Under the pieces are notes generated by a model, which worked only from the letters and a program-made list of their open reading frames with translations, did not search any database and was not told the origin of the DNA. A stretch of DNA of 64,000 nucleotides from a bacterium. GTDB lineage: Bacteria; SAR324; XYD2-FULL-50-16; G965216635. The stretch spans positions 136,001 through 200,000 of the forward strand of contig OZ244188.1 of the NCBI GenBank assembly GCA_965216635.1, given 5' to 3'. Position 1 is the stretch's first letter, and every line of letters begins with the position of its first letter. The position numbers were made by a program, and so were the translations under genes. Below are positions 4,698 through 53,969 of the stretch, one piece after another.

Positions 4698-4722
4698 CTT
4701 TAGAATTTTATGCCTCTAAGTT

Positions 4723-4824: not shown

Positions 4825-7800
4825 TGCCAGCTAATCTATCAAAATCATCCAACCAATATTTTCTATACTCTTCTGGAGCAAGAGTAGTGTCTCTCGTTTT
4901 GAAAAACAACTGAGTTTTTATTGTAAAGCCGTGAGACAAATATTTTTTTGCTTGGTTTTTATTTTCAATTTTTTCTTCAAATAGATTTTTATAGCCATCA
5001 ATTTTTCTTATCACATCGGTATGCTCTGTGCCTTTGGGATCTAAAAAAAGAATGGTATAATTCTTCTCTTTTTGCATCCAAAAAATAAAATCAGGGAAAA
5101 AATGGGATATAGAATTTGTCTTTGGGTTATAGTAAGGAATATGAATACTATCTAAAGTTTCGTCTAGTTTAGAAAACATCCACCAATCATAATTTTTAAA
5201 AACACTGTTATCTTTTTGCAAATATTCTTCTAAATTTTCAATAAACTTTATTTCGCTCGGCACATCAATAATATGGTTTAAGTAATCTACTTTTTCTTGC
5301 TCTGCTACAATTAGAGGATGGTAGTAATGGTTGGCTAAATATTTTATTTTAATTTTTTGATTGTTGAGCTCAAAAGTTTTTGCCGATTCGAATTTTTCAA
5401 ATAAAGTGAGTTGTTCGTCGTAATCTTTTCTTTTTCCCGTTTTGAATAATTCTTCTAATTCTAATTCTTTTGCTGCACTAGATTTATTTAGTTTTTGATT
5501 TTTTATAATTTCCAGTTTCTCTTTTAATTCTTCAATTTTATTTCCATCTTTGAATTTTATTTCTTTAAAATGCACAATTTCTGCTTCTAGTTTTTTAAAC
5601 CCATCAACCTCTTGGTTTTGAATGCTGAAATAATCTAAGATACTTTTGAGGTGTAAATCTGGTTTATCAATATTTCTTGTCTCGTCAAAATTGTAATATT
5701 TGCTTTGATTCTGCATACTTTCTGACACTTTTTTTAAGACTTTTATCTCGCATTCGTTTTTTAGCAAAACGATTTTATCTCCTAAATGTTCAAATAGTTT
5801 TTGAGTTTGGGTAAGGTCTTTTTTACTAACCGAATACTTTAAAACAGTGCTGGATTCTGCCAATATTTTATTGGATTTTTGATAAACAGGTACGAGTAAC
5901 AAACGATTTTTAATTTTTTCGTTTATTGCAAATAAGTCTCCCAAATTATGTTCTGGCTTTTGCTGTTCTTCTTGGAGTTTTTCTATTATATTTTTTAAAT
6001 TTTCTGCGTTGGTTCCAAAAACAAACAGACTTTCTAAGGCTAAAATATTTTGTTTTATTTTATCAAACAGCTCTTGCTCTGCTTCTTCAGCGGCTATTAA
6101 GTTTTGCAATCTTTTTCTTTTATTTTTTAGAGGCTCTATCCGCAACCCACGCCCTACCGATTGCAAAACAAATTTTTTAGAATCTTTTGCCATTCCTATA
6201 TTTACAAATAAAATAAGATTGGGTCTATTAGAATCCCACCCTTCGTAAAAAGAACGCGAGCCCATCAAAATATTTATATCCGAATCGTCTTGGTTGATTT
6301 TTTTGAATATACTTTCATTTTCCAAACTTTCTATGATTTGATAATCTGCCACTGTGTCTTTTAACCAGCCAGAAATATCTCCAATTTTTATCAAAGCAAA
6401 AGGTTTCTCCGAAGTCTGTAGTTTGAAAGCAATCTCTTTTTTATTTTTTGGAACCTTTAAAATTTCAATTTTGCCGAAATTATTTGCATTGAATACAGCT
6501 TGCAGAATTTTCTTGTAGCTTATTTTTGAAAGTATATTGCTATCTATTTCTATTTTTGTATTTTCAAATAGATATTTATTATTGTCCGAAAATTCAGCAA
6601 GCAATTCAGTTTTAGCTTCTTCCAGTAAATTTGGTTTAATTTGGTTGTTAGCTATTTTTTCTAGTTCTGCAAAGAAAAGTTTTAAGTCTGGTTCTTTAAT
6701 AATTTTATCCAAATCAGATTTTTTTGTATTGACGGAATTAACCAGTGTCAAGAGCAAGGGGCGGTGATAAAGACTGCCATTTGTTTTTCTTATTTTTTTA
6801 AAATGCTTGTAGCTATAGGTTTGTAAAAGCAGAGTTTTTAAAACAATTTTTTGTTTTTCTATTTCGGAGAAGTTATCTTGTTCCTTAAAAGCAGTTACTT
6901 TCTGTTTTGAAACATAGATATGCTTGCCGTATCCAGCTCCTATAAATTTGGCGAGATTAAAATCAAAAACGCAGCTAGCGTAGTCTCTAGCATCGGTAAA
7001 AGTAGCAGAGAAATTAAACAAAAAACCGTTCCTTGAAAGAATAGAATAAAAAATCTGCCGTTTGCTTTCTTCTTTGTCTCCTTTGTGGGCTTCGTCTAAA
7101 AGAATATACCATTTCCCAAAGTTATCGTAATTTTTAAAATTCACAATGTTTTGCTTGTGTTCATCAGAAATTAAATCAGAGCGGTAATAAAAAATAGTTA
7201 TCTCTTTTTTGGAATAGGGCAGAGCATTTTCGTGTTTTACGCTCTCGTATTCTTTCAAACTTTTTAAGAGGATCTTGGTCTCAAAATTATCTCTATTAAA
7301 CTCTGCTATATGCTCTTTGAACTGTTGTAAAAGATCTTCTCGGTGCGCCAAAAACAAAATATCGTTTTTAGGAATTTCTCCTTTTCTTATCAGCTCTCCT
7401 AAAAGATGAATAAGTTTTACAATCACAAGCGTTTTACCAGAGCCAGTTGCCATCCAAAAACTCATCCGATTGATAAAAGAAGCGAAAGAGATTTTGTCGC
7501 CTGAAACTGAGTATTCCTCACTGTATTCCAAAAGATATTTAGTCGTTTTGTTTTCTTTGCTTTTCTTTTTGCTGCCTTTTTGATTCAAGGTATAATCAAA
7601 ATTTTCATCGTAGTTATTGTTGCGGTATTTTTGAAAAAAATTATTTTTTCTAGTCTGGTAGTCTTTGTGATTTTCGCTGTAAAACAAGTGCAGTCCTTTC
7701 AGTGAATTTTCTAGTGCTTCTTTTTGAAAATCGTAAAGTCTTTTTTTTTGAGAAAAACTTTTTAAATCAAAATTTTGCCATTCTGCTGGCAAGTTGGCAA

Positions 7801-7849
7801 AAGAAATTTTTTTAACTATTTCCTGTAGATAATGCTCCATTATTCCCAC
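4808..7849 (-). CDS. res: Type III restriction endonuclease, Res subunit (SF2 helicase-nuclease)
   Basis: Walker A ATGSGKT, DEAH-box-like LLDEAHKG, 1013 aa, 10-nt overlap with upstream mod gene. Confidence 0.85.
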   Translation of the reverse strand: MGIMEHYLQEIVKKISFANLPAEWQNFDLKSFSQKKRLYDFQKEALENSLKGLHLFYSENHKDYQTRKNNFFQKYRNNNYDENFDYTLNQKGSKKKSKENKTTKYLLEYSEEYSVSGDKISFASFINRMSFWMATGSGKTLVIVKLIHLLGELIRKGEIPKNDILFLAHREDLLQQFKEHIAEFNRDNFETKILLKSLKEYESVKHENALPYSKKEITIFYYRSDLISDEHKQNIVNFKNYDNFGKWYILLDEAHKGDKEESKRQIFYSILSRNGFLFNFSATFTDARDYASCVFDFNLAKFIGAGYGKHIYVSKQKVTAFKEQDNFSEIEKQKIVLKTLLLQTYSYKHFKKIRKTNGSLYHRPLLLTLVNSVNTKKSDLDKIIKEPDLKLFFAELEKIANNQIKPNLLEEAKTELLAEFSDNNKYLFENTKIEIDSNILSKISYKKILQAVFNANNFGKIEILKVPKNKKEIAFKLQTSEKPFALIKIGDISGWLKDTVADYQIIESLENESIFKKINQDDSDINILMGSRSFYEGWDSNRPNLILFVNIGMAKDSKKFVLQSVGRGLRIEPLKNKRKRLQNLIAAEEAEQELFDKIKQNILALESLFVFGTNAENLKNIIEKLQEEQQKPEHNLGDLFAINEKIKNRLLLVPVYQKSNKILAESSTVLKYSVSKKDLTQTQKLFEHLGDKIVLLKNECEIKVLKKVSESMQNQSKYYNFDETRNIDKPDLHLKSILDYFSIQNQEVDGFKKLEAEIVHFKEIKFKDGNKIEELKEKLEIIKNQKLNKSSAAKELELEELFKTGKRKDYDEQLTLFEKFESAKTFELNNQKIKIKYLANHYYHPLIVAEQEKVDYLNHIIDVPSEIKFIENLEEYLQKDNSVFKNYDWWMFSKLDETLDSIHIPYYNPKTNSISHFFPDFIFWMQKEKNYTILFLDPKGTEHTDVIRKIDGYKNLFEEKIENKNQAKKYLSHGFTIKTQLFFKTRDTTLAPEEYRKYWLDDFDRLAGKINEA

Positions 7850-10308
7850 CAGATTAAAGGTTTAATTTTTTTGTAGTCTAGCTCTTTTGTGTTTTCTTTG
7901 CTTCCGTCTGTAAACAAAACTTCGTCTTCAGTGATCATTTTGATCCATTTGCCGTTTAGGCAAGATAGGGTTTCTGCTATATCAACATTGGGATAAAGTT
8001 TTTTTAAGTCTACAGTCGCTTTGTTTTTTTGGTAGTCAATTTCTAAACATTTTAGCATTTTTTCGTCCTTCATAAAAACATAGTCTTGGTAGGCTTTGTC
8101 ACTCGTTTGGTTAAATAAATTTGCATCGCCGTATTTTGTGTTTTCCAAAGTTTCTTCGTACTGCTCTAGCTCGTAGTACTTGAAAAACCCGCCTCCTTTG
8201 TAGTCTTTGGTATCCTTTGAAATACCGCTTTTATCGTAGGCTAAAACTTCTTTCATTCTCGGTAAAACTACGCTATAAAAATGCTCTCCCATTTCTACAC
8301 CGAGCCATTTTCTGCCGAGTTTATGTGCCACCGCTGTTGTAGTGCCAGAGCCGAGGAAATAGTCAAAAATTAAATCTTTTTCTTTTGAGCCTGTATTGAT
8401 TACTCTGGCTAATAATTTTTCTGAGTTTTCTGTTGTAAAACCCCAAGTTGAAGAATAGCCTACCCAATCAGTCCAATTATCTGTTAATTTTTGTGTTTCG
8501 GTTTCTTCTATTTGTGGTGTTTTATTATCTCCATTACTCCATTTTATTTTATTTTCTTTTTCTAACTCAAATATAAATTTTTGATTCAAAGCCCAATGTC
8601 TACCGTCTGGAGGCAATAACTCTGTATTAAGAATTATACGCGCCCTTGTTGTTGCTTTCCCATTTCTTTTTTCAGACTGGGCTCTTATATTTTTTTTTGA
8701 AAAAAGTTTGATATATTCATCAGGTATAGGAGACCATCTAATACCTGGTAAGTGCATAGCTCTCCATTTTGGATTATCTCTTTTTTTTGTAGCTGTAGAA
8801 AAAACAAATTGATTAGACTTTGAATAGAAAAAAAGAGAATCATGTCCACTATGATATTTATTAATTTGCTCTGTTAACTTTGCCGATTTACTAATAATAA
8901 TTTCATTTTGGTAGTTAAATATTTTATCCAACAAACACCTCACAATCCAGTTTCCGTGATAATCGCAGCGCACAAAAATACTTCCGCTATTATGCAAAAC
9001 TTCTTTGGCAAGTTTTAAGCGGTTTTCAAGGAGTGTAGCCCAGCTAGAATCCTTGTATTTGACTAGATAGTCGTAGTCTGCGTTGTTTTCTAAATTAAAA
9101 GGGGGGTCAATATAAATCGTTTGTATTTTTTCTTTGAATTTAGGCAGGATAGTATTGAGTGCTTGGTAGTTTTCACTTTTTATCAGCCAGCCGTCTAGTT
9201 GCTTATCCAAATCGTCAAATAAGCCTAAAATTTCTAGCTCCAAATCTTTAAAGTGTTTGGTATCTATAGGCAAATGCTTGTGTTTTTTGGTTAAACTATT
9301 GCCGTTTAAATCTGTTTCAAAAATAGTTTCTATCTTAAAATCACTCTCTACAATTCCGAGTTCTTGCCATTCTTGGATCTGCTCTTTTATTCCTCCGTGT
9401 TTGAGTATTTTTTGTAGCAGAATTTTATCTGCGATTCTATCTAGCGTCAAAACATAATTGCTATTTTTGGCAAACTTCGGTTTGTTCCAAATCTTGACTA
9501 GCTCGTTTTCAAACTGAGCGACAAAATCAATGATCTTAAAAGCAATGTTTTTCAGTATTTGTAATTGGTTTATTCTTATCGCAGACCATTCTTTAGCCCC
9601 TTCCCAAAGATATTGATAGCTCCAGAGTTTAAACTGCTCTTCCAAAAAAGCCTTAGCGTTTTTGTTAATGAAAAAATCTACCTCTGCTTGTCTATTGAAA
9701 ATACGAAAAGCTTTTTCTAATTCTTCTTCCTTGATAAAAACTCCTGCTTTTTTTATGGCTCTTAAGATATCTTCTGTTTTTGTTTTTGTACCATTATCGG
9801 AGTGAAGCGCAGCAAAGCAAATTGTTCTATCTTCCTTTACTTCCTTAAACTCAAAAACAAGAGATTTTTTCTCGTTCGCTTTTTTAGGTTTAATATTTTC
9901 TGCGTCAAAATAGAATTTGAAAACATCAAATTCTACGAGCGTGCTTCTAAAAATCCTATCGCTTTTGACATAGTAAAGCATCTGAGTTTTCCAAAACAAA
10001 ACTACATCTTTTTCGTCTGTATAGACCTTTTCATAAATGTTGTTATGAAAGGGAGTAGAGTTAAAATAGATAGAACCGCTTTCGCTAAAATAACGACTAA
10101 AAAAAGAATGGAGTTTGTCAAAAAGCTCCTCTCTAAAATTGGAATGTTCTTTTAGAGCTTTATAAATATCTTGTTTTAGCAAAATTTCTATCTGCTCGTA
10201 ATATTTTGATTTTATTTGCATCAAATTGATAAAACCACCTTTGCCGTCAATTTTTGCACCGATAAATATATCTTGCAGTGCTTGAAAAAATTTTTGTTCT
10301 TTCGTCAT
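7840..10308 (-). CDS. mod: Type III restriction-modification system Mod subunit (N6-adenine DNA methyltransferase)
   Basis: DPPF motif (IYIDPPFN) and downstream SAM-binding region (FDYFLGSGTT); 822 aa; operonic with res. Confidence 0.85.
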   Translation of the reverse strand: MTKEQKFFQALQDIFIGAKIDGKGGFINLMQIKSKYYEQIEILLKQDIYKALKEHSNFREELFDKLHSFFSRYFSESGSIYFNSTPFHNNIYEKVYTDEKDVVLFWKTQMLYYVKSDRIFRSTLVEFDVFKFYFDAENIKPKKANEKKSLVFEFKEVKEDRTICFAALHSDNGTKTKTEDILRAIKKAGVFIKEEELEKAFRIFNRQAEVDFFINKNAKAFLEEQFKLWSYQYLWEGAKEWSAIRINQLQILKNIAFKIIDFVAQFENELVKIWNKPKFAKNSNYVLTLDRIADKILLQKILKHGGIKEQIQEWQELGIVESDFKIETIFETDLNGNSLTKKHKHLPIDTKHFKDLELEILGLFDDLDKQLDGWLIKSENYQALNTILPKFKEKIQTIYIDPPFNLENNADYDYLVKYKDSSWATLLENRLKLAKEVLHNSGSIFVRCDYHGNWIVRCLLDKIFNYQNEIIISKSAKLTEQINKYHSGHDSLFFYSKSNQFVFSTATKKRDNPKWRAMHLPGIRWSPIPDEYIKLFSKKNIRAQSEKRNGKATTRARIILNTELLPPDGRHWALNQKFIFELEKENKIKWSNGDNKTPQIEETETQKLTDNWTDWVGYSSTWGFTTENSEKLLARVINTGSKEKDLIFDYFLGSGTTTAVAHKLGRKWLGVEMGEHFYSVVLPRMKEVLAYDKSGISKDTKDYKGGGFFKYYELEQYEETLENTKYGDANLFNQTSDKAYQDYVFMKDEKMLKCLEIDYQKNKATVDLKKLYPNVDIAETLSCLNGKWIKMITEDEVLFTDGSKENTKELDYKKIKPLIWWE

Positions 10309-10312
10309 AATT

Positions 10313-11812
10313 TTAAAATTCAGTAACTCTAGTTTTCACCTTAGTTTTTCCCTGCTCTGTTGTTTCCAAATAAAATTTATAAAGTAGATTTTGAGATACA
10401 GCACTGCGGTATTCTTTCGTTGCTCTCAAATCGCTAATAGGAGAGTAGTCTTTTTGCAAAGTTTTCATTGTAGCCATTATTGTCTCTTCTTCCCATAGTT
10501 TGCCTAGCAAAGCCTGTTCGGTTTTATAAGCTCTTTTGGGGAAGGCAGACATACCTGAAAAAGCGATGGCTATTTTTTGAATGCTGTTAGCATCATCTAG
10601 TTCAAGTTGGAAAGCTCCGCAAAGTGCAGATATATCATCGTCTATTCTTTTGGATATTTTGTAAATTCTAAAATACTGTTTTTCTGTGGGTTTTGGAATT
10701 TGAATCTGTTCTATAAACTCCCCTTTTTTCAGGGCTGTTTTTCTGTAGTCAAGAAAAAAATCTGTAGCTAGAATCACTCTAGTTTTTGCTGCGTGCCCAG
10801 TAGATACTTGGCAAGCTTGCCTTAAAACAAAACGCGCCCCCCAAACCAATAGAGCTGGTGGAGTGTCGGCTACTGCTGAAGCGTTGGCGAGGTTGCCGCC
10901 AATACTAGCTTGATTTCTAATTTGTGGAGAAGCAAATCTTGTCAACAGCAAGGCAAAGTCGGGGTAATATTTTTCAAAAATAAAAAAAAGTTTAGCAAGT
11001 GGCACAGCAGATCCTAAATGGAGTTCGGTTTTTGTTTCCTTGATAATATTTAATTCTGCCACTCTGTGTAAATCAATAATGGCATAAAATCTCTGATGCC
11101 TCTGGGTGATTGCTAGAGATAAATCCGTTCCTCCACAGCTAAGTTTGGCATCTGGATTTTGTAGTAGAAGGTGAATGAAATTTTTTAAGTTTGTAGGAAG
11201 ATAGTAATTTTTTATAAGAGTATCTCCGCCTAGCGCTGTTTTGGCTGGAGATTCTTTAAGGCTATGCAGTAGTTTTAAAGTTTTTTTCTCCTCGCACGGG
11301 TGGGCATCTGCTGGTGTATCTGCTGGTGTATCTATTGGGGCTTGAAGAGCAGCATCTATAATTGCTCTGTAACCAGTGCAGCGGCAAAGATTCCCAGTCA
11401 AACCTTCCAAGACCTGTTCACGAGTAGGTTTTATGTGGTTTTGAAACAGCGCAAATAAAGACATCACAAAACCAGGTGTGCAAAAACCACATTGGGAGCC
11501 GTGATAATCTACCAAAGCTTGTTGCACAGGGTGTAACCCTTTTTTATCTTTTAAACCCTCTACTGTTATCAACTGATTGCCTTCTAAATTGCCCAGCAAG
11601 GCTATGCAAGAGTTAATCGTCCGATATTTTAGTTTTGTATATTTAGAATCTGGCTCTGCGAGAACTACAGTGCAGGCTCCACAATCACCACTAGCGCAAC
11701 CTTCTTTAGTGCCACAAAAACCCTCTTTTCGTAAATACTCCAAAATCGTTGTATTGGCGTTTTCTTCTTGGATAGTGCGGATTTCATTTTTGTTAAGTAG
11801 GAATTGGAGCAT
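10313..11812 (-). CDS. xdhA: Xanthine dehydrogenase small subunit (2Fe-2S ferredoxin + FAD-binding domains). True start probably MLQFLLNK at 11812; the ORF-track N-terminal extension to 11908 is likely spurious
   Basis: Two [2Fe-2S] cysteine clusters (CGxGxCGAC…, CGFCTPG, CRCTGY) followed by a CO-dehydrogenase flavoprotein-like FAD domain. Confidence 0.85.
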   Translation of the reverse strand: MLQFLLNKNEIRTIQEENANTTILEYLRKEGFCGTKEGCASGDCGACTVVLAEPDSKYTKLKYRTINSCIALLGNLEGNQLITVEGLKDKKGLHPVQQALVDYHGSQCGFCTPGFVMSLFALFQNHIKPTREQVLEGLTGNLCRCTGYRAIIDAALQAPIDTPADTPADAHPCEEKKTLKLLHSLKESPAKTALGGDTLIKNYYLPTNLKNFIHLLLQNPDAKLSCGGTDLSLAITQRHQRFYAIIDLHRVAELNIIKETKTELHLGSAVPLAKLFFIFEKYYPDFALLLTRFASPQIRNQASIGGNLANASAVADTPPALLVWGARFVLRQACQVSTGHAAKTRVILATDFFLDYRKTALKKGEFIEQIQIPKPTEKQYFRIYKISKRIDDDISALCGAFQLELDDANSIQKIAIAFSGMSAFPKRAYKTEQALLGKLWEEETIMATMKTLQKDYSPISDLRATKEYRSAVSQNLLYKFYLETTEQGKTKVKTRVTEF

Positions 11813-11953
11813 AATAAAAAGTATAATTATTGTTTTTATTAAAAACACCCTAATAAACCAAAGCCTACTAATAGTAAAATAGATAATCAAGAAAAAAAAC
11901 GCTGGCAATACCTATTTGATGATTTTAAGAGCTCTTATCCTTTTAATGGATGA

Positions 11954-12237: not shown

Positions 12238-13491
12238 ATGCAAGAAGTAACAAAAAGGGCGTTAAATAGCTCTCTTAAAAATTGTGAGACAAAATTAGCT
12301 CAATTTAACCAACGGGCTGGTTTTCAACGGGCGAGTTTTCGTGGAGCGTTATTGCTAGGTGCGGTTTTGTTGAGTTTGCTATTTGTAGGTAATCTGCAAG
12401 CACAGAGCAGCGTTAGCACAAAACAGGGATTTTTCGCGGGTATTGTCTATCTACAAGGATTCGGAGTAGATACCACAAAAACTAGCACAAGCTCTGCTAC
12501 TGGCTATGAAATCACTGGCTATGGAGAGGCAACCACTGGAATAGATTTAACTGGTGGAAATCCTAACTGGCCTACTGCAACAGCAACTGGAATGAGAGCT
12601 TTACTAAAAGCAAACTGTGAAACAGGAATAACGAGGATTACACAAACAGATGGAAATTACTTTTTCCCCGTGAGTACCTTTAGCTCTTTTAATGAGATTA
12701 AGGATGCTACTGTAACATCCCTAGACAGTGTTACTGGAGTTCGATTTAGAAATGGAAAAGACCCAAGTGAAGACTCCCATTGTCGTAGGCATTTTTACGG
12801 TGATCTTTCCTCTGGAAGAACCGCTATTAATTTTTCTGCCTATGAGATAGCGACTCCAGATTCGCTTTCAAAATCCCCTCTCCCCAGCACAGAGAGCGAC
12901 GCACTCAACGGTGTCGGTCTGCAAGTCGGCTGGCGAGGAGAAAAATGGAGAGCCTCCTTGACTCACTTTACTGGCAAGGGTGGAGCTAACGAGCTCGTCA
13001 ATACAGTGGTGATGGCGGAGTATTTTTTTCACGAGGAGTTTTTTGCAGGAGGCGGTCTAGCGAGTATGAAGCTTACCAATGGCTCTACTAGTGCTTCGGC
13101 TACTAGTCCCGTGTTAACGGTAGGCTATAAGGAGAACTTAACTCCCAACCTATTCTTTAATATTAGCTTGACGAAGTATATCTCGGGGGTTTCTCTGAGC
13201 CGTTCTGCTCCAGCTTCTGCTCCGATTCCCACTGGCAGAACTTTTAGCGAAACACAGACTGCACGCGGTGATTCAGCCTTTCTTGGAGGCCTAGTTTATA
13301 TAAATGACAGGGGAAGTGCATTTAAATTCAGTTATGATGTTGGTGCTATTGTAGATAGCAGAATAGAAGTAACCCAAGTCCGCACAAGAGATGTGGAAAT
13401 ACAAGAAGTTGAAATTCCAGCAGCGGAGAAAATTGAAGCTGAAATCAAAGCCCCCGTAGTCGTCAGCATTTCCCTGCTTTGGCGCTTTTAA
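12238..13491 (+). CDS. Paralogous outer-membrane beta-barrel protein, copy 1 (conserved N-terminal MQEVTKRALNSSLKNCETK extension, hydrophobic signal-like segment, C-terminal …VVVSISLLWRF)
   Basis: C-terminal aromatic-X-Phe OMP signature, alternating beta-strand pattern, 5-member paralog family with shared upstream region. Confidence 0.6.
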   Translation: MQEVTKRALNSSLKNCETKLAQFNQRAGFQRASFRGALLLGAVLLSLLFVGNLQAQSSVSTKQGFFAGIVYLQGFGVDTTKTSTSSATGYEITGYGEATTGIDLTGGNPNWPTATATGMRALLKANCETGITRITQTDGNYFFPVSTFSSFNEIKDATVTSLDSVTGVRFRNGKDPSEDSHCRRHFYGDLSSGRTAINFSAYEIATPDSLSKSPLPSTESDALNGVGLQVGWRGEKWRASLTHFTGKGGANELVNTVVMAEYFFHEEFFAGGGLASMKLTNGSTSASATSPVLTVGYKENLTPNLFFNISLTKYISGVSLSRSAPASAPIPTGRTFSETQTARGDSAFLGGLVYINDRGSAFKFSYDVGAIVDSRIEVTQVRTRDVEIQEVEIPAAEKIEAEIKAPVVVSISLLWRF

Positions 13492-13597
13492 CAGAGTTGT
13501 TGAAAAAAATGCAAAATTCTTTTTTTTTGTTTGCTTTTAATTTTTTTTCAGTTATATTTCTAATTTTAATCTCTTCTAACTTTTATTAAATATTATT

Positions 13598-14902
13598 ATG
13601 CAAGAAGTAACAAAAAGAGCGTTAAAAACACCTCTTAAAAATTGTGAGACAAAAGTAGCCCAATTTAATCAACGGGCTGGTTTTCAATGGGCTGGTTTTC
13701 AATGGGCTGGTTTTCAATGGGCTGGCTTCAAATGGAATGGCGTTGTATTGCTAGGTGCGATTTTGTTGAGTTTGCTATTTGTAGGTAATCTGCAAGCACA
13801 GAGCAGCGTTAGCACAAAACAGGGATTTTTCGCGGGTATTGTTTATCTACAAGGATTCGGAGTAGATACCACAAAAACTAGCACAAGCTCTGCTACTGGC
13901 TATGAAATCACTGGCTATTCAAACGACGAAACTAGAATAGACGCAACAGGTGGGAATATTTATTTGAATAAGATAGTACTAACTAGCATCAGAGTTTTAT
14001 TCAAAGAAAACTGTGAAGCAGGAACAACGAGTATTACACAAACAGGTGGAGATGCAAATTCAAATGGAAATTACTATTTTGCCTCGAAGCACTTCAGCTC
14101 TTTTAATGAGATTAAGGATGCTACTGAAACAGCCAAGGGAGGCACTATTGTTGAAACTGGATTTAGAAATGGAACAGTGGCAACTCATGACTCCTATTGT
14201 CGCAGGTACTTTTACGGAGATCTTTCCTCTGGAAGAACCACTATTAGTTTTTCTGCCTATGAGATAGCGACTCCAGATTCGCCTTCAAAACCCCCCGTCA
14301 CCAGCACAGAGAGCGACGCACTCAACGGTGTCGGTCTGCAAGTCGGCTGGCGAGGAGAAAAATGGAGAGCCTCTCTGACTCACTTTACTGGCAAGGGTGG
14401 AGCTAACGAGCTCGTCAATACAGTGGTGATGGCGGAGTATTTTTTTCACGAGGAGTTTTTTGCAGGAGGCGGTCTAGCGAGTATGAAACTTACCAATGGA
14501 TCTACTAGCGCCTCGGCTACTAGTCCCGTGTTAACGGTAGGCTATAAGGAGAACTTAACTCCCAACCTATTCTTTAATATTAGCTTGACGAAGTATATCT
14601 CGGGTATTTCTCTGAGCCGTTCTACTAATCCAGCTCAGATTCCCACTGGCGCCCCTCTTATAAGAAAAACACAGACTAAAGATGGTGATACAGTGTACAT
14701 TGGAGGAATAGTTGAGAGGAATGAAGCACGGTTTCGATATAGCTCCGCATTAGAAAGTGTGTCAGATTCCAGAATAGAAGCAACCCAAGTCCGTAGCCGA
14801 GATGTGGAAATACAACAAGTCACAACTCCAGCAGCGCAGAAGATAGAAGCCGAAATCAAAGCCCCCGTAGTCGTCAGCATTTCCCTGCTGTGGCGCTTTT
14901 AA
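13598..14902 (+). CDS. Paralogous outer-membrane beta-barrel protein, copy 2 (4 copies of GFQWA pentapeptide repeat in N-terminal extension)
   Basis: As copy 1; 15-bp in-frame tandem repeat GCTGGTTTTCAATGG. Confidence 0.6.
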   Translation: MQEVTKRALKTPLKNCETKVAQFNQRAGFQWAGFQWAGFQWAGFKWNGVVLLGAILLSLLFVGNLQAQSSVSTKQGFFAGIVYLQGFGVDTTKTSTSSATGYEITGYSNDETRIDATGGNIYLNKIVLTSIRVLFKENCEAGTTSITQTGGDANSNGNYYFASKHFSSFNEIKDATETAKGGTIVETGFRNGTVATHDSYCRRYFYGDLSSGRTTISFSAYEIATPDSPSKPPVTSTESDALNGVGLQVGWRGEKWRASLTHFTGKGGANELVNTVVMAEYFFHEEFFAGGGLASMKLTNGSTSASATSPVLTVGYKENLTPNLFFNISLTKYISGISLSRSTNPAQIPTGAPLIRKTQTKDGDTVYIGGIVERNEARFRYSSALESVSDSRIEATQVRSRDVEIQQVTTPAAQKIEAEIKAPVVVSISLLWRF

Positions 14903-15009
14903 CAGAATTGTTGAAAAAAATGCAAAATTCTTTTTTTTTATTTTCTTTTTTATTTTTTTTCAGTTATATTTCTATTTTTACCTTCTTCTAACCTTTATTA
15001 AATATTATT

Positions 15010-16353
15010 ATGCAAGAAGTAACAAAAAGGGCGTTAAAAACACCTCTTAAAAATTGTGAGACAAAAGTAGCTCAGGCTGGTTTTCAATGGGCTAACCAAT
15101 GGGCTAATCAACGGGCTGGTTTTCAATGGGCTAATCAACGGGCTGGATTCCAATGGAATGGCGTTGTATTGCTAGGTGCGGTTTTGTTGAGTTTGCTATT
15201 TGTAGGTAATCTGCAAGCACAGAGCCCCAATGGAAACACAAAACAGGGATTTTTCGCGGGTATTGTTTATCTACAAGGATTCGGAGTAGATACCACAAAA
15301 ACTAGCACAAGCTCTGCTACTGGCTATGAAATCACTGGCTATTCAAATGACGAAACTAGAATAGACGCAACCTCTGGATTGTCTTATTGGGATACCCCAG
15401 CGGGGACGACAGCCGGAATTGGAGCTAGAGCTTTAATAGCGGCAAACTGTGAACGTGATGCAACAAATACTACATATCTAGGTGAAAATTATTATCTTCC
15501 AAGAAATTTCTATTTCTTCGATTCTTTTGATCCTGGTGCGAAACAGTCTTTAGCTGATATTAATAGTTCAATGAATGATGCTACTGTTACTTTTAATGAC
15601 GACACTATTTCTAGTAGAATCTTTCGTTCAGGATTGGTAGCTGGAGAAACATCCTATTGTAAAACTTACTTTGATAGCCTTCCCCAAATTAATTTTTCTG
15701 CCTATGATGTAACTCCAGATTCGCCTTCAAAACCCCCCGTCACCAGCACAGAGAGCAACGCACTCAACGGTGTTGGTCTGCAATTCGGCTGGCGAGGAGA
15801 AAAATGGAGAGCCTCCTTGACTCACTTTACTGGCAAAGGTGGAGCTAACGAGCTCGTCAATACAGTGGTGATGGCGGAGTATTTTTTTCACGAGGAGTTT
15901 TTTGTAGGAGGCGGTCTAGCGAGTATGAAGCTTACCAATGGCTCTACTAGCGCCTCGGCTACTAGTCCCGTGATCACGGTAGGCTATAAGGAGAACTTAA
16001 CTCCCAACCTATTCTTTAATATTAGCTTGACAAAGTATATCTCGGGTATTTCTCTGAGCCGTTCTACTAGTCCTACAGCTACTAACAAAACTTTTACCCG
16101 CACACAGACTGAACGCGGTAAAGATAGTCATAAAGCAACGATTGGTAGCAGAATCACAGTTCCTGCTAATCGGCAAAGCGGGGTAGGCGCTATTTTTCAA
16201 CAAGCAGCAGGTCCTGATAATAGAATAGAAGTAACCCAATTCCGCAGCAGAGATGTGGAAATAGAAGAAGTCACAACTCCAGCAACGCAGAAGATAGAAG
16301 CTGAAATCAAAGCCCCCGTAGTCGTCAGCATTTCCCTGCTGTGGCGCTTTTAA
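15010..16353 (+). CDS. Paralogous outer-membrane beta-barrel protein, copy 3 (mixed GFQWA/NQWA/NQRA repeats)
   Basis: As copy 1. Confidence 0.6.
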   Translation: MQEVTKRALKTPLKNCETKVAQAGFQWANQWANQRAGFQWANQRAGFQWNGVVLLGAVLLSLLFVGNLQAQSPNGNTKQGFFAGIVYLQGFGVDTTKTSTSSATGYEITGYSNDETRIDATSGLSYWDTPAGTTAGIGARALIAANCERDATNTTYLGENYYLPRNFYFFDSFDPGAKQSLADINSSMNDATVTFNDDTISSRIFRSGLVAGETSYCKTYFDSLPQINFSAYDVTPDSPSKPPVTSTESNALNGVGLQFGWRGEKWRASLTHFTGKGGANELVNTVVMAEYFFHEEFFVGGGLASMKLTNGSTSASATSPVITVGYKENLTPNLFFNISLTKYISGISLSRSTSPTATNKTFTRTQTERGKDSHKATIGSRITVPANRQSGVGAIFQQAAGPDNRIEVTQFRSRDVEIEEVTTPATQKIEAEIKAPVVVSISLLWRF

Positions 16354-16383
16354 TAGAGTTGTGTAGGCACCGAATCACCTAAA

Positions 16384-16521
16384 CTTTTGAATTTGCATTC
16401 TGTTTAGCCTATGCAGCGTTAAAAAAAAATTTTAACTCTTGAAATATTACATATATTCCTGCGAGCTAAAATTTTTTTTTGCCTTGCCTAGCCGTCACAT
16501 AACGCAAATTCAAAGGTCTAT
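16384..16521. mobile_element. MITE-like element inserted in the loop of the post-OMP3 hairpin (GGCACCGAATCACCTAAAC | element | ACCTAAACTCGGTGCC), with an apparent 8-bp duplication ACCTAAAC
   Basis: The uninterrupted version of the same hairpin exists on the other strand near 57005-57035; element body is >90% identical to the 59556-59699 copy. Confidence 0.65.
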
Positions 16522-16805
16522 TACCTAAACTCGGTGCCATTCAAAAAACCACCTCCCCGCCAAACCGCATCCCCTCCAAAAACACCTAAAAAAACAAAAT
16601 TGCAGGGACATTTTTTTTGCTTTTCGTGAAAACAAAAAAAACACAAAGCTCTCACTAAAAATAAACCCTTGCATTAAGTTATATTTTGGCTAAACTAGGA
16701 AAATTTTAAAAAAAGATAAAAAGTTATGTTTTTTTTGTTTGCTTTTAATTTTTTTTCAGTTATATTTCTATTTTTACCTTCTTCTAACCTTTATTAAATA
16801 TTATT

Positions 16806-18089
16806 ATGCAAGAAGTAACAAAAAGGGCGTTAAATAGCTCTCTTAAAAATTGTGAGACAAAAGTAGCTCAGGCTGGTTTTCAATGGGCTAATCAACGGGC
16901 TGGATTCCAATGGAATGGCGTTGTATTGCTAGGTGCGGTTTTGTTGAGTTTGCTATTTGTAGGTAATCTGAAAGCACAAACCCAAAATGGTTCCAATGGA
17001 AGCACAAAACAGGGATTTTTCGCTGGTATTGTCTATCTACAAGGATTCGGAGTAGATACCACAAAAAGCAGCACAAACTCTGCTACTGGCTATAGAATCA
17101 AATATTCAAACGATATTACTGGAATAGACGCAACAGGTGGGAATCATACGTTGAGCCCTTTACTTTTACTAACTAGCATCAGAGCTTTATTCAAAGAAAA
17201 CTGTGAAGAAGGAACAACGAATTTTACACAAACGGGTGGACAAGCAAATTCAAATGGAAATTACTATTTTACCAGGGATTACTTCGTATCTTTTAATGAG
17301 ATTAAGGATGCTACTGTAATAGAATTTGTAGACCCTATTGCTCGAACTAGATTTAACAATGGAAAAGTGGTAACTCATGACTCCTATTGTCGCAGGTACT
17401 TTTACGGTGATCTTTCCTCCACTAGAACCCCTATTAATCTTCCTGATCCTGATGTGACTGCAGATTCGCTTTCAAAACCCCCCGTCACCAGCACAGAGAG
17501 CGATGCACTCAACGGTATCGGTCTGCAAGTCGGCTGGCGAGGGGAAAAATGGAGAGCCTCTCTGACTCACTTCACTGGCAAAGGTGGAGCTAACGAGCTC
17601 GCCAATACAGTGGTAATGGCGGATTATTTTTTTCACGAGAAATTTTTTGCAGGAGGCGGTCTAGCGAGTATGAAGCTTACCAATGGTTCAACTAGCGCCT
17701 CGGCTACTAGCCCCGTGGTTCAAGTAGGCTATAAGGAAAACTTAACTCCCAACCTATTCTTTAATATTAGCTTGACAAAGTATATCTCGGGTATTTCTCT
17801 GAGCCGTTCTACTAATCCAGCTCCGATTCCCACTGGCGCCCCTCTTATTAGAAAAACACAGACTAAAGATGGTGATACAGTATTCATTGGAGGAACAGTT
17901 ACTAGAATTGACAGGTCGAATCAATATAACTCCTTATTTAGCAGTGTGTTAGATTCCAGAATAGAAGTAACCCAAGTCCGCAGCCGAGATGTGGAAATAC
18001 AACAAGTCACAACTCCAGCAGCGCAGAAGATAGAAGCCGAAATCAAAGCCCCCGTAGTCGTCAGCATTTCCCTGCTTTGGCGCTTTTAA
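16806..18089 (+). CDS. Paralogous outer-membrane beta-barrel protein, copy 4
   Basis: As copy 1; shares about 270-bp upstream region with copy 1. Confidence 0.6.
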   Translation: MQEVTKRALNSSLKNCETKVAQAGFQWANQRAGFQWNGVVLLGAVLLSLLFVGNLKAQTQNGSNGSTKQGFFAGIVYLQGFGVDTTKSSTNSATGYRIKYSNDITGIDATGGNHTLSPLLLLTSIRALFKENCEEGTTNFTQTGGQANSNGNYYFTRDYFVSFNEIKDATVIEFVDPIARTRFNNGKVVTHDSYCRRYFYGDLSSTRTPINLPDPDVTADSLSKPPVTSTESDALNGIGLQVGWRGEKWRASLTHFTGKGGANELANTVVMADYFFHEKFFAGGGLASMKLTNGSTSASATSPVVQVGYKENLTPNLFFNISLTKYISGISLSRSTNPAPIPTGAPLIRKTQTKDGDTVFIGGTVTRIDRSNQYNSLFSSVLDSRIEVTQVRSRDVEIQQVTTPAAQKIEAEIKAPVVVSISLLWRF

Positions 18090-18396
18090 CAGAAAAAAAC
18101 CTACAATGGATGTTGCAAAGCATAACATGTAGAGACGCCCTACACGGGCGTCTTATATGATGTGCATAAACCACAAAAAAAACTATTTTAATAAAAGTTC
18201 TGAATTTATGAGACGCTCGTATAGAGCGTCTCTACAGACCTACATAAAATAAAAAATAACGCCCCGCATTTCCCCAAACATCTTCTTAAGAACGGGGACA
18301 CATTTTTACCCAAAATGGTTGAATAAGCAAAAAATAACGTTCCCGCAAAAACACCTAAAAAACAAAATTGCAGTGGGCATTTTTTTAATTTTGCCC

Positions 18397-18402
18397 TATA
18401 AT
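18397..18402 (+). promoter_or_regulatory. Putative -10 box (TATAAT) of the Bdr-like array promoter, inside the conserved module CAAAATTGCAGNGGNCATTTTTTTAATTTTNCCCTATAATCTTTTTATTTT
   Basis: Module conserved (reverse-complemented) upstream of the two minus-strand Bdr-like transcription units at about 55625-55690 and 56890-56945. Confidence 0.35.
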
Positions 18403-18500
18403 CTTTTTATTTTTTGGGGCTTGACTTCACTAGAATAGTTTGCTAAAATAAAACAACCAAAATAAAATGTTAAGAAAAATAAAATGTTAAGAAAAATAAA

Positions 18501-19022
18501 ATGTTAAGAACAACTACCGCACAAAAATTTACTTCTACTAAAATCTACGATCTTTTGATTGGACTAGGTGCAGAAAAAAAGAGCGCAGAGATTGCTATTG
18601 GAGAGTTTGTAGAACTGGTCCCAAAAGCTTTGGCTTCTAGTACAACAGAAACTGGTTTGGATACCACTCTTCCTACGGACAAAGGGGATATCTGGAGATT
18701 AGAATCCATCATTTCAGACAACAAAAGCGATACAGACATAAAACTGAAAGAAATTGAGAAGGAAATAGTAAAAATCAAAAGCAACCTAAAAGAAACTATA
18801 GCAAAAACCAAAAGCGACCTAAAAGAAACTATAGCAAAAATCGAAAGCAACTTAAAAGAAACTATAGCAAAAAACAAAAGCGATACCGATTTAAAAATAG
18901 AAATGATGAGAACAGAAGCAGAAAAAAACAAAAACGCTCTATTGATTATAGGAATTTCAACACAGCTAGCAGTTGGTGGGCTGGTTGTGGCTGTATTACA
19001 GCTTTTAAAAGTTTTGACTTAA
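18501..19022 (+). CDS. Bdr-like / DUF1640-like small coiled-coil membrane protein (173 aa; C-terminal cassette …LQLLKVLT)
   Basis: Conserved N-domain MLRTTTAQKFTSTKIYDLLIGLGAEKK…, 11-aa (33-bp) tandem repeats KSDLKETIAKx, C-terminal TM helix; architecture parallels Borrelia Bdr proteins. Confidence 0.55.
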   Translation: MLRTTTAQKFTSTKIYDLLIGLGAEKKSAEIAIGEFVELVPKALASSTTETGLDTTLPTDKGDIWRLESIISDNKSDTDIKLKEIEKEIVKIKSNLKETIAKTKSDLKETIAKIESNLKETIAKNKSDTDLKIEMMRTEAEKNKNALLIIGISTQLAVGGLVVAVLQLLKVLT

Positions 19023-19110
19023 TAAAGTAGCAGAAAAGTTTAGCTTATCTGCAAAATGTATTTTGGCGAGGGGATATTTTTTGGGGGCATTGACTTTAAA
19101 AGGAGAATTT

Positions 19111-19180
19111 GCCAAAATAAGTTTGCCAAAATAAGTTTGCCAAAATAAGTTTGCCAAAATAAGTTTGCCAAAATAAGTTT
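19111..19180. repeat. 14-bp tandem repeat GCCAAAATAAGTTT x5 in the promoter region of the second Bdr-like transcription unit (downstream of TTGACT at 19090)
   Basis: Seen directly; the same repeat is present in 2 copies at 20439-20466 upstream of the next unit. Confidence 0.8.
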
Positions 19181-19251
19181 GATTGCTATGATCTTTTTAG
19201 GTAGAATTTATAAAAATAAAACAACCAGCTATAAAAACCTTTAAAAATAAA

Positions 19252-19788
19252 ATGTTAAGAACAACTACAGCACAAAAATTTACTTCTACTAAAATCTACG
19301 ATCTTTTGATTGGACTAGGTGCAGAAAAAAAGAGCGCAGAGATTGCTATTGGAGAGTTTGTAGAACTGGTCCCAAAAGCTTTGGCTTCTAGTACAACAGA
19401 AAATGGTTTGGATGTCACTCTTCCTACGGACAAAGGGGATATCTGGAGATTGGAATCCATCATTTCAGACAACAAGAACGATACAGACAGAATAATAACA
19501 GAGAACAGAAACGACCTAGAAAGAATAATAACAGACAATAAAAATGATACAGACCTAAAACTGAAAGATATTGAGAGTAAAATCGTAAAAACCAAAAGCG
19601 ACTTGATAAGAATAATAACAGACAATAAAAATGATACAGACCTGAAATTTAAGGATATAGATTTAAAAATAGAAAGGATGAGAACAGAAGTAGAAAAAAA
19701 CAAAAACGCTCTATTGATTATAGGAATTTCAACACAGCTAGCAGTTGGTGGGCTGGTTGTGGCTATTTTACAATTTTTACAAAACTAA
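19252..19788 (+). CDS. Bdr-like small coiled-coil membrane protein (178 aa; C-terminal cassette …AILQFLQN)
   Basis: Paralog family as above. Confidence 0.55.
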   Translation: MLRTTTAQKFTSTKIYDLLIGLGAEKKSAEIAIGEFVELVPKALASSTTENGLDVTLPTDKGDIWRLESIISDNKNDTDRIITENRNDLERIITDNKNDTDLKLKDIESKIVKTKSDLIRIITDNKNDTDLKFKDIDLKIERMRTEVEKNKNALLIIGISTQLAVGGLVVAILQFLQN

Positions 19789-19795
19789 AAATAAA

Positions 19796-20350
19796 ATGTT
19801 AAGAACAGCTACGACACAAAAATTTACTTCTACCAAAATCTACGATCTTTTGATTGGACTAGGTGCAGAAAAAAAGAAAGCAGAGATTGCTATTGGAGAG
19901 TTTGTAGAACTGAGACCAAAAGCTTTGGCTTCTAGTACAACAGAAACGGGTTTGGATACCACTCTTCCTACGGACAAAGGGGATATCTGGAGATTGGAAT
20001 CTATCATTTCAGAGAACAAGAACGATACAGATATAAAACTGAAAGATATTGAGAGTAAAATCGTAGAAACCAAAAGCGACCTAGAAAAAACTATAGCAAA
20101 AACCAAAAGCGACCTAGAAAAAACTATAGCAAAAATCGAAAGCAACCTAAAAGAAACTATAGCAAAAATCGAAAGCAACTTAAAAGAAACTATAGCAAAA
20201 AATAAAAGCGATACCGATTTAAAAATAGAAATGATGAGAACAGAAGTAGAAAAAAACAAAAACGCTTTATTGATTATAGGAATTTCAACACAGCTAGCAG
20301 TTGGTGGGCTGGTTGTGGCTGCATTACAGCTTTTAAAAGTTTTGACTTAA
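19796..20350 (+). CDS. Bdr-like small coiled-coil membrane protein (184 aa from MLRTATTQ; ORF-track start 19745 is an extension into the upstream gene). Separated by only 7 bp from the upstream paralog
   Basis: Paralog family as above. Confidence 0.55.
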   Translation: MLRTATTQKFTSTKIYDLLIGLGAEKKKAEIAIGEFVELRPKALASSTTETGLDTTLPTDKGDIWRLESIISENKNDTDIKLKDIESKIVETKSDLEKTIAKTKSDLEKTIAKIESNLKETIAKIESNLKETIAKNKSDTDLKIEMMRTEVEKNKNALLIIGISTQLAVGGLVVAALQLLKVLT

Positions 20351-20438
20351 TAAAGTAGCAGAAAAGTTTAGCTTATCTGCAAAATGTATTTTGGTGAGGG
20401 GATATTTTTTTGGGGCATTGACTTTAAAAGGAGAATTT

Positions 20439-20466
20439 GCCAAAATAAGTTTGCCAAAATAAGTTT
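20439..20466. repeat. 14-bp tandem repeat GCCAAAATAAGTTT x2 (same promoter context as 19111-19180)
   Basis: Seen directly. Confidence 0.8.
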
Positions 20467-20536
20467 GATTGCTATGATGTTTTTAGTAGAATTTATAAAA
20501 ATAAAACAACCAAAATAAAAACTTTTAAAAAATAAA

Positions 20537-21106
20537 ATGTTAAGAACAACTACAGCACAAAACTTTACTTCTACTAAAATCTACGATCTTTTGATTGGAC
20601 TAGGTGCAGAAAAAAAGAAAGCAGAGATTGCTATTGGAGAGTTTGTAGAACTGAGACCAAAAGCTTTGGCTTCTAGTACAACAGAAACTGGTTTGGATGT
20701 CACTCTTCCTACGGACAAAGGGGATATCTGGAGATTGGAATCTATCATTTCAGAGAACAAGAACGATACAGATATAAAACTGAAAGATATTGAGAGTAAA
20801 ATCGTAGAAACCAAAAGTAACCTAGAAAAAATAATAACAGAAAACAGAAACGACCTAGAAAAAATAATAACAAAAAACAGAAACGACCTAGAAAAAATAA
20901 TAACAGACAACAGAAACGACCTAGAAAGAATAATAACAGACAATAAAAATGATACAGACCTGAAATTTAAGGATATAGATTTAAAAATAGAAAGGATGAG
21001 AACAGAAGTAGAAAAAAACAAAAACGCTCTGTTATTCTGGGGTGTGACAGCCCAGCTGACTATTGGTGGGTTGGTTGTGACTATACTACAATTTTTACAA
21101 AACTAA
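20537..21106 (+). CDS. Bdr-like small coiled-coil membrane protein (189 aa; C-terminal cassette …LLFWGVTAQLTIGGLVVTILQFLQN)
   Basis: Paralog family as above. Confidence 0.55.
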   Translation: MLRTTTAQNFTSTKIYDLLIGLGAEKKKAEIAIGEFVELRPKALASSTTETGLDVTLPTDKGDIWRLESIISENKNDTDIKLKDIESKIVETKSNLEKIITENRNDLEKIITKNRNDLEKIITDNRNDLERIITDNKNDTDLKFKDIDLKIERMRTEVEKNKNALLFWGVTAQLTIGGLVVTILQFLQN

Positions 21107-21113
21107 AAATAAA

Positions 21114-21617
21114 ATGTTAAGAACAACTACAGCACAAAACTTTACTTCTACTAAAATCTACGATCTTTTGATTGGACTAGGTGCGGAAAAAAAGAAAGCA
21201 GAGATTGCTATTGGAGAGTTTGTAGAACTGAGACCAAAAGCTTTGGCTTCTAGTGCAGCAAAAACGGGTTTGGATACCACTCTTCCTACGGACAAAGGGG
21301 ATATCTGGAGATTGGAATCTATCATTTCAGAGAACAAGAACGATACAGATATAAAACTGAAAGATATTGAGAGTAAAATCGTAGAAACCAAAAGTAACCT
21401 AGAAAGAATAATAACAGACAACAGAAACGATCTAGAAAGAATAATAACAGACAATAAAAATGATACAGACCTGAAATTTAAGGATATAGATTTAAAAATA
21501 GAAAGGATGAGAACAGAAGTAGAAAAAAACAAAAACGCTCTATTGATTATAGGAATTTCAACACAGCTAGCAGTTGGTGGGCTGGTTGTGACTATACTAC
21601 AATTTTTACAAAACTAG
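21114..21617 (+). CDS. Bdr-like small coiled-coil membrane protein (167 aa)
   Basis: Paralog family as above. Confidence 0.55.
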   Translation: MLRTTTAQNFTSTKIYDLLIGLGAEKKKAEIAIGEFVELRPKALASSAAKTGLDTTLPTDKGDIWRLESIISENKNDTDIKLKDIESKIVETKSNLERIITDNRNDLERIITDNKNDTDLKFKDIDLKIERMRTEVEKNKNALLIIGISTQLAVGGLVVTILQFLQN

Positions 21618-22065
21618 AGACCTTTATTAGCGTTCTGTTTAGCCTATGCAGCGTTGAAAAATTTTTTTAACTCTTGAAATATCACACATATTCCAGCGAG
21701 CTAAAAAAATTTTTCGCCTTGCCTAGCCGTCACATAACACTAATACAAAACTCTCACTAAAAATAGGACCTTTATTAGCGTTCTGTTTAGCCAAAACAAG
21801 CTTATTGCTTGAAACTATTTATGGGCTATAGAAAAAGTGCCTTTTGGCACTTTTTCATTTCTTTTTTGGAGTATGCAAAGTTTGTAGTGCCCTGATCCCA
21901 TTATTGTGGCACTACGCCATTGAAAAATTTTTTTAACTCTTGAAATATCACACATATTCCAGCGAGCTAAAAAAATTTTTCGCACCTGTTCTAACCATTT
22001 GGCTAGCCGTCTTAAGAACAACTACAGCACAAACTCTCACTAAAAATAAGACCTTTGCGGGATTT
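21615..22065. mobile_element. Cluster of degenerate/partial MITE-like copies (two internal segments …AACTCTTGAAATATCACACATATTCCAGCGAGCTAAAAAAATTTTTCGC…), interleaved with a fragment of a Bdr-like gene start (CTTAAGAACAACTACAGCACAAA at about 22012-22034)
   Basis: Direct comparison with the full copies at 16384 and 59556 and with the Bdr-like 5' ends (ATGTTAAGAACAACTACAGCACAAAA). Confidence 0.5.
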
Positions 22066-53451: not shown

Positions 53452-53458
53452 TTTATTT

Positions 53459-53962: not shown

Positions 53963-53969
53963 TTTATTT

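Follow-up and report, generated by a model that had tools for sequence, protein, structure and literature searches.

Two tandem arrays of a lineage-restricted family of coiled-coil proteins lie in the 64,000-nucleotide stretch of a SAR324 bacterial genome analyzed here (contig OZ244188.1, positions 136,001 to 200,000; assembly GCA_965216635.1), which we call the window and in whose coordinates all positions are given. In these loci the ancestral unit paired a gene for a putative outer-membrane barrel with a single coiled-coil gene downstream of it, both having promoters of their own. Unequal crossing-over in this genome multiplied the coiled-coil gene into translationally close-packed units, whose copies have been kept alike, and reshuffled, by gene conversion. 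We lean, though not strongly, towards regarding the products as a lineage-restricted family of tail-anchored inner-membrane proteins that would form an oligomeric scaffold working with the neighboring barrel family.

Gene arrays, protein architecture and predicted topology

A first-pass annotation made from the sequence alone had described five co-directional paralogs of 167–189 aa at 18501–21617 and counted 12 copies in the window. A motif scan and the list of open reading frames (ORFs) agree on both points, with five family genes on the + strand (array 1) and seven more at 52873–56803 on the − strand (array 2). The genes and their cis elements are as follows; the promoter sites are consensus matches.

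18421–18449, +, sigma-70-like promoter upstream of A1, TTGACT-17-TAAAAT (TG-extended)
18459–18510, +, perfect 17-bp tandem repeat, three copies (AAAATAAAATGTTAAGA), with the A1 start codon inside it
18501–19022, +, A1, 173 aa, single-gene unit, cassette ...LQLLKVLT
19108–19181, +, 14-bp repeat TTTGCCAAAATAAG, 5.3 copies, promoter region of unit A2-A3
19252–19788, +, A2, 178 aa, cassette ...LQFLQN, A3 starting 7 nt on
19796–20350, +, A3, 184 aa, cassette ...LQLLKVLT, last gene of unit A2-A3
20436–20467, +, 14-bp repeat TTTGCCAAAATAAG, 2.3 copies, promoter region of unit A4-A5, with a promoter-like site at 20451–20478
20537–21106, +, A4, 189 aa, cassette ...LQFLQN, A5 starting 7 nt on
21114–21617, +, A5, 167 aa, cassette ...LQFLQN, final gene of array 1
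22010–22032, +, 23-nt remnant of a family 5' end (CTTAAGAACAACTACAGCACAAA) lacking the start codon, downstream of array 1
52873–56803, −, array 2, seven family genes in two units
56879–56851, −, promoter-like TTGACT-17-TAAAAT before B1
56246–56803 and 55738–56238, −, B1 and B2 (unit B1-B2)
55613–55585, −, promoter-like TTGACT-17-TAAAAT before B3
55013–55537, 54502–55005, 53970–54494, 53459–53962 and 52873–53451, −, B3 to B7 (unit B3-B7)

The start of A3 was placed at the ATG at 19796 by paralogy, this being the ATG used in all paralogs; the mechanical ORF begins at the TTG at 19745.

The 12 proteins share a build of conserved head, repeat stalk and terminal anchor. A multiple alignment of all copies mapped both the invariant head and the cassettes. 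The nearly invariant N-domain of about 75 aa that had been reported is borne out, with 67 of the first 77 residues identical in 12/12 copies, and the first 225 nt of head DNA differ at 0–16 positions in pairwise comparison. The stalk is encoded, as had also been proposed, by a variable number of 33-bp units giving 11-aa repeats. Tandem Repeats Finder reported 33-bp arrays in three of the five array 1 genes (18765–18881, 20067–20211 and 20820–20940; 3.5–4.4 copies, 89–95% match), and the five array 1 copies and B7 keep an 11-residue register from residue 73 to the anchor. In the other six array 2 copies the register is shifted by an 18-residue (11+7) segment, DTDLKIEKMRTEAEKNKS. Fourier analysis gave a hydrophobic period of 3.60–3.66 residues for 11 of the 12 stalks, with almost no power at 3.5, and hydrophobic residues occupy positions 2, 6 and 9 of the 11-residue unit. 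The stalk pattern is that of a hendecad (11/3) coiled coil. Stalks in the window span 82–105 residues (~12–16 nm) and reach ~160 residues in paralogs elsewhere in the genome, which are up to 249 aa long.

An AlphaFold2 monomer model, built on a 25-sequence alignment of the family, has helices at 13–21 and 26–38, disorder at 39–60 and an uninterrupted helix at 61–172, with pLDDT of ~90 in the stalk. The linker ends in an invariant [K/R]GD-IWRLE segment, in which [K/R]-G-D occupies residues 61–63 (e.g. 18681–18689) directly ahead of the stalk; it is KGD here and RGD or KGD in relatives, and the tripeptide may serve as a hinge in the structure. When the family model was the query of a fold search, nothing matched at E<=0.001, which is unsurprising for one long helix whose head is of low confidence, and a sequence-profile search of the PDB returned generic coiled coils only (E>0.05).

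The only strongly hydrophobic segment is the C-terminal one. Its best 19-residue window stops 0–9 residues short of the C-terminus and is preceded by a K/R-rich stretch. None of the 12 copies has a signal peptide or an N-terminal hydrophobic segment, and none contains cysteine, hence there is no lipobox. With neither export signal, and with the anchor at the extreme C-terminus, the proteins are predicted to be inner-membrane tail-anchored with head and stalk in the cytoplasm.

The genes form five units (A1 / A2-A3 / A4-A5 / B1-B2 / B3-B7). Promoter-like sites are confined to the long spacers (TTGACT-17-TAAAAT at A1, B1 and B3; TTGCCA-16-TATGAT at A2 and A4), and every other junction is a 7-nt spacer, AAATAAA or AAGTAAA. 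The arrangement in pairs 7 bp apart that had been described applies to A2-A3, A4-A5 and B1-B2, but A1 stands alone and B3-B7 are a run of five. All three C-terminal cassettes that had been listed exist, although array 1 has no example of the third, ...LQFLKV(V/A)A (LQFLKVAA/VVA), which is found in array 2 only, in B2 and B7. Genes ending in ...LQFLQN always precede another family gene, with A5 as sole exception, and those ending in ...LKVLT or ...LKVAA close their units.

The 14-bp repeat is a variable-number element, with 5.3 versus 2.3 copies in two paralogous promoter regions. In unit A2-A3 its final copy supplies the −35 hexamer TTGCCA, 16 nt ahead of TATGAT (19165–19192). Phase variation through this repeat was considered and rejected, because the final copy always lies 16 nt from the −10 whatever the copy number, and no spacing switch results. 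A Bacteroidota-type promoter was likewise considered, on account of TAAGTTTG at the repeat junctions and the near absence of Shine-Dalgarno sequences, and was dropped: TAnnTTTG, the −7 box of that phylum, occurs 113 times in the window against 99.5 +/- 9.9 expected, which is no enrichment. Sigma-70-like sites suit the arrays better. Upstream of 39 window ORFs we counted two loose GGAG/GAGG/AGGA matches, none of them ahead of a family gene, and the ORF starts are preceded by A/T-rich sequence. The 17-bp repeat, found at A1 only among the family copies, creates two upstream out-of-frame ATGs (18467 and 18484), each opening a 7-codon mini-ORF, MLRKIKC and then a stop; it could modulate translation or vary by slippage.

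Long antisense ORFs (106–146 aa, hydrophobic) run through both arrays, at 18545–21532 (−) and 53009–56759 (+). They cover all five array 1 genes and six of the seven array 2 genes, with none of at least 100 aa over B6 (53459–53962), and antisense ORFs over family genes recur in relatives. We rejected them as genes, as the conserved start, the anchor and purifying selection are all in the sense frame; more probably they are shadows cast by a codon composition rich in K/E/D/I/N.

Copy number, recombination and distribution

A search through 5.8 billion clusters turned up 38 relatives. Among these, 21 clusters are on the window's own contig of 2,394,643 bp and include 12 sequences that are not encoded in the window; together with the 12 copies in the window, the genome therefore has at least 24 family genes, and the high copy number that the first-pass annotation had remarked on extends well beyond the window. 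All other relatives, at ~46–61% identity, belong either to a single ENA metagenome (ERZ26869290) or to a single NCBI assembly (GCA_014238815.1), and in these relatives the coiled-coil gene is single-copy. The nearest PheT, 55% identical, is in a metagenome-assembled genome. A head-only profile run against 1.84 billion representatives retrieved 16 proteins, two of them spurious repeat proteins and the rest from one lineage. The family was absent from 185,579 GTDB species representatives, from plasmid and phage records searched by tblastn (50,697 phage records), from IMG/VR and from JGI metagenomes. It is lineage-restricted.

The copies are recombinational mosaics produced by duplication and gene conversion, in line with what had been suspected. 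Of 379 distinct in-frame stalk 33-mers, 180 are common to more than one gene, and the order of modules varies between copies. Hybrid anchors are present, for example ALLIIGISTQLAVGGLVV joined to TILQFLQN. The head DNA of A1 is nearer to array 2 (4–6 differences) than to A3-A5 (13–16 differences), and B5-B6 is a second version of the two-gene unit B3-B4, 1043 bp long and differing from it at 7 positions. Since the copies differ, even the closest units at 7 positions, the arrays are not an artefact of assembly, and chance could not have produced such a pattern. Synonymous divergence (dS) of the head does not exceed 0.14 within the window versus 0.4–0.9 to relatives, and thus the copies arose or were homogenized after the lineages split. 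Taken together, the mosaicism, the duplicated unit and the low dS imply unequal crossing-over and conversion within and between arrays. The pattern indicates that stalk length was altered by recombination or slippage among the 33-bp units. Against relatives the ratio of nonsynonymous to synonymous divergence (dN/dS) in the head is 0.24–0.54, therefore this is a real gene under purifying selection.

Downstream of array 1 lie the 23-nt remnant listed above and a ~70-bp element present twice (21655–21720 and 21923–21990); they are probably the scar of past recombination. The two array loci (16806–21617 and 52873–58344) are inverted copies of one arrangement, ~31 kb apart, and share stretches of more than 200 nt at 93–100% identity. 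Homologous recombination between them could invert the 22–52.8 kb segment.

Cassette shuffling and repeat-number change had been taken to suggest a variable surface- or envelope-exposed protein, with antigenic or phase variation as the purpose. The mosaic copies, the variable short repeats in promoters and at one start codon, and the proximity of a much-amplified putative outer-membrane family would all suit this idea. It is nevertheless unlikely: the proteins have no signal peptide or lipobox and are anchored at the C-terminus only, the head hardly varies and is subject to purifying selection (dN/dS as above), and the copy number of the 14-bp repeat leaves the −35/−10 spacing unchanged. The variation is reuse of a few modules, not hypervariability. 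Moreover, the analogous Borrelia protein Bdr is associated with the inner membrane (PMC10016077).

Relation to Bdr, DUF1640 and XhlA proteins

The first-pass annotation had compared the family to Bdr, DUF1640 and XhlA proteins. With respect to build, the likeness to Bdr is real. A bdr gene of B. burgdorferi B31 cp32-1 served as reference, and both families consist of small proteins with a conserved N-domain, a count of 11-residue repeats that varies between paralogs and a C-terminal hydrophobic anchor. Bdr, too, is a multi-copy family reshuffled by homologous recombination (PMC3303823); it is inner-membrane-associated, its function is unknown and its genes adjoin those of outer-surface proteins (PMC10016077). 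The settings differ. Bdr genes stand singly on cp32 prophage-plasmids and linear plasmids, whereas the present ones are arrayed in tandem on the chromosome, in close-packed units set among housekeeping genes (pheT, pta, hisS, icd, ABC transporter), with no plasmid or phage match by tblastn, and their neighbor is not a lipoprotein but a beta-barrel protein. Sequence comparison did not connect the two. The B31 cp32-1 Bdr scores 70.6 bits on the Pfam KID repeat PF02524, which makes it a positive control, and this repeat had no match in five window proteins (E up to 1) or in 25 family members (E<0.01). In hhalign the family paired with Bdr at a probability of 1.4% over the full length and 0.1% for the heads, in a comparison of low power that used one Bdr sequence.

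The most recurrent Pfam match is DUF1640 (PF07798), which was found in 10 of the 25 members at E<0.01 (E 6.7e-6 at best) and for which three paralogs carry precomputed matches. This speaks in favor of the view that the family is a highly diverged true member of the DUF1640/CCDC90-like group, sharing ancestry, and probably the trimeric head/beta-layer/stalk/anchor mechanism, with the mitochondrial proteins MCUR1 and CCDC90B and with bacterial DUF1640 proteins. We consider that view possible but doubtful. All scores (at most 20.9 bits in the window and 26.5 among paralogs) fall below the gathering threshold of 33.5 and come from the compositionally biased stalk and the anchor only; the recommended check against Pfam yielded sub-threshold hits to this family and none to XhlA. 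A paralog elsewhere in the genome (P0009) carries a precomputed match to PF28068.1 that did not appear in the local Pfam scan.

For direct comparison, bacterial DUF1640 proteins were retrieved with a made-up bait sequence, all matches used carrying precomputed PF07798. Those sampled are mostly 76–156 aa, have variable ATKRDIKELEx 11-aa repeats and end in ...ALVKLL; the two families thus share a head, a coiled-coil stalk and a single C-terminal transmembrane helix, down to the variable 11-aa repeats. hhalign aligned nothing beyond anchor with anchor and TKIYDLLIGLGAEKKSAE with HKFVKxLxxAGxPExQAE; these pairings, of probability 14.6% (anchor only) and 0.95% (head, E 0.058), would suit common ancestry. 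A head register with DUF1640 drawn by eye without gaps (F10, L19, G23, A29, E30) fails a shuffle test. A DUF1640 head HMM scores no better on the N-domain than on 31–42% of shuffles, and an HMM of head plus beta-layer no better than on 1.4–45%. The DUF1640 head motif, F-D-T ... L...G.....Q-A-E, is not recognizably present in the family head. At the start of the stalk, DUF1640 proteins have a beta-layer motif, [aliphatic]-A-T-K-[polar]-[DE] (PMC4786415); in the family this ATKxD motif is not present as such and its place is taken by L/V/A-P-x-[SD]-[KR]-G-D-I-W (L-P-T-D-K-G-D). Neither MCUR1 nor CCDC90B was among the matches of the PDB profile search. In functional terms a parallel may still be drawn. 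The paralogs MCUR1 and CCDC90B are described as forming one transmembrane coiled-coil scaffold complex, with the MCUR1 coil reported to face the matrix (bioRxiv 10.1101/2025.10.14.682030), and this mixed complex resembles the mixed-cassette units found here.

No match to XhlA (PF10779) was obtained at E up to 1 in Pfam, and neither a prophage context nor a phage-database match was seen. XhlA is a small, lysis-associated coiled-coil protein of PBSX-type prophages with a C-terminal membrane segment, and the likeness is a general one. Two PHROGs of unknown function, phrog_9415 and phrog_6701, do match stalk and anchor at E 1e-8 to 1e-5, which would be in keeping with an XhlA-like or holin-accessory-like membrane protein left by a prophage. 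Such an origin is largely refuted and now hardly credible, given the missing XhlA match, the absence of phage genes beside either array and the lack of any tblastn match in 50,697 phage records or IMG/VR. Like the family, E. coli DUF883 proteins such as ElaB, YqjD and YgaM are made without a signal peptide and, as is predicted for it, join a helical part in the cytoplasm to a single C-terminal helix in the inner membrane; unlike the family they lack an 11-residue repeat stalk and are not amplified, and the Pfam scans gave no DUF883 match. The sequence family is thus new while its build is already known, and membership in Bdr, DUF1640 or XhlA, as first suggested, is not upheld: PF07798 stays below threshold, KID and XhlA are missing and the hhalign probabilities are insignificant.

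The neighboring barrel family and a putative scaffold

Both arrays lie directly downstream of genes of a second family, and the array 2 locus mirrors the layout of array 1:

12238–13491, +, first of four tandem partner-family paralogs (417–447 aa; whole run 12238–18089) directly upstream of array 1
13598–14902, +, second partner paralog
15010–16353, +, third partner paralog
16806–18089, +, fourth partner paralog
57088–58344, −, partner-family gene (418 aa) directly upstream of array 2

Each of the four tandem paralogs has a signal-peptide-like segment and ends in ...SISLLWRF. The model of the partner is an 8-stranded outer-membrane barrel fold of moderate confidence (pLDDT 68). It agrees with the 8-stranded barrels of OmpA/OmpW/NspA type in barrel fold, signal peptide and C-terminal aromatic residue, and differs from the small ones (NspA/Opa, OmpA N-domain, OmpW, OprF N-domain) in its size of ~420 aa with a large extra region. 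No Pfam or NCBIfam match was found for it. The family is amplified as well, with at least 30 clusters on this genome and many variants in the related metagenome. Variable 15-bp repeats (AGFQW-type, 5 aa) occur in the N-terminal region of the partner genes (12310–12340, 13669–13735 and 15084–15156), just ahead of the signal-peptide-like hydrophobic segment.

The pairing recurs in relatives. A coiled-coil gene follows a partner homolog in five of their loci (L002, L005, L007, L011 and L012), and one relative has, downstream of the pair, genes for a TP_0789/LolA-like protein, a 554-aa protein and an MMPL transporter. Being so paired, the amplified barrel family is a concrete candidate partner.

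In the mechanism that we propose, a small helical head (residues ~1–40) would be followed by a flexible linker, the hendecad stalk and a transmembrane helix at the very C-terminus. The tail would anchor the protein in the inner membrane, leaving head and stalk in the cytoplasm, and the stalks would oligomerize into homo- or hetero-oligomeric membrane scaffolds, mixed oligomers being suggested by the mixture of anchor cassettes within units. Such a scaffold would hold the conserved head 12–25 nm off the inner membrane and, in what is the weakest step, might act together with the neighboring barrel family.

Several observations weigh against this proposal. The topology, oligomeric state and scaffold role rest on prediction, and the head was modeled with low confidence (pLDDT 41–65) and has no significant structural match. 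The diderm envelope is deduced only from the barrel model, an MlaD match in the window and a lipid A acyltransferase (PF03279) on locus L001. At four loci of relatives (L001, L003, L010 and L013) the coiled-coil gene has no barrel gene nearby. The contigs of six relatives' loci in ERZ26869290 (L004-L007, L010 and L011) are internally palindromic, with mirrored genes, which suggests chimeric long-read assembly and weakens the counts of gene context. Finally, a cytoplasmic stalk and an outer-membrane barrel could lack any mechanistic tie, the linkage being merely genetic between co-amplified neighbors.

If the topology were reversed, with the N-terminus outside, the stalk would be a periplasmic spacer or tether and the head would touch the neighboring barrel. 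The conserved order of barrel gene and coiled-coil gene fits this arrangement, and stalk lengths of 12–25 nm are on the order of the width of a periplasm. We regard it as improbable, because export of ~145 hydrophilic residues would have to proceed with no signal peptide, and basic residues are commoner before the anchor than after it.

Another question is whether the proteins could be directed at a host. RGD and KGD are integrin-recognition tripeptides, relevant only if the protein meets a eukaryotic host. A secreted, tail-anchored effector of a host-associated bacterium would account for the invariance of KGD or RGD across the family, and large lineage-specific paralog families that are rare in databases fit a specialized symbiont or pathogen. 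We nonetheless find such a role very unlikely; the window revealed neither a secretion system nor a secretion signal, a tripeptide carries little information, and the window holds ordinary biosynthetic genes. A broader speculation, which we would also rate as unlikely, is that barrel and coiled-coil genes make up an undescribed two-part envelope module, probably of a host-associated lineage, in which an exported or exposed [K/R]GD head acts on the barrel or on a eukaryotic host. Were that so, the joint expansion of the two families in a 2.4-Mb genome, to at least 30 barrel and at least 24 coiled-coil copies, and the gene conversion would amount to a system of programmed variation.

Elsewhere in the window, the xanthine dehydrogenase genes xdhA (10313–11908, −) and xdhB (2415–4697, −) are split by an 822-aa N6/N4 DNA-methyltransferase-like ORF and a 1013-aa ORF without a family match, which together occupy 4808–10308. 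The insertion within the xdh operon (span 2415–11908, −) looks like one of the restriction-modification type.

In summary, the family of the two arrays, predicted to be tail-anchored and amplified along with its neighbor to an uncommon extent, is a third one with the build of Bdr and DUF1640 proteins, without detectable sequence relationship to either and with no new mechanism demonstrated. The arrays also show, as a clean natural case, how bacterial genes in tandem evolve in concert and shuffle their modules. Roughly estimated from the number and length of their genes, the coiled-coil and barrel families take up ~2% of the genome, and they are therefore likely to matter to the biology of the organism. 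Bdr and DUF1640 proteins, whose function is unknown, occur widely or have medical relevance, and the family adds a further example to this unsolved class. The occurrence of one build in all three suggests that it is itself a recurrent solution for holding a small head, by a hendecad stalk of adjustable length, at a set distance from the inner membrane.

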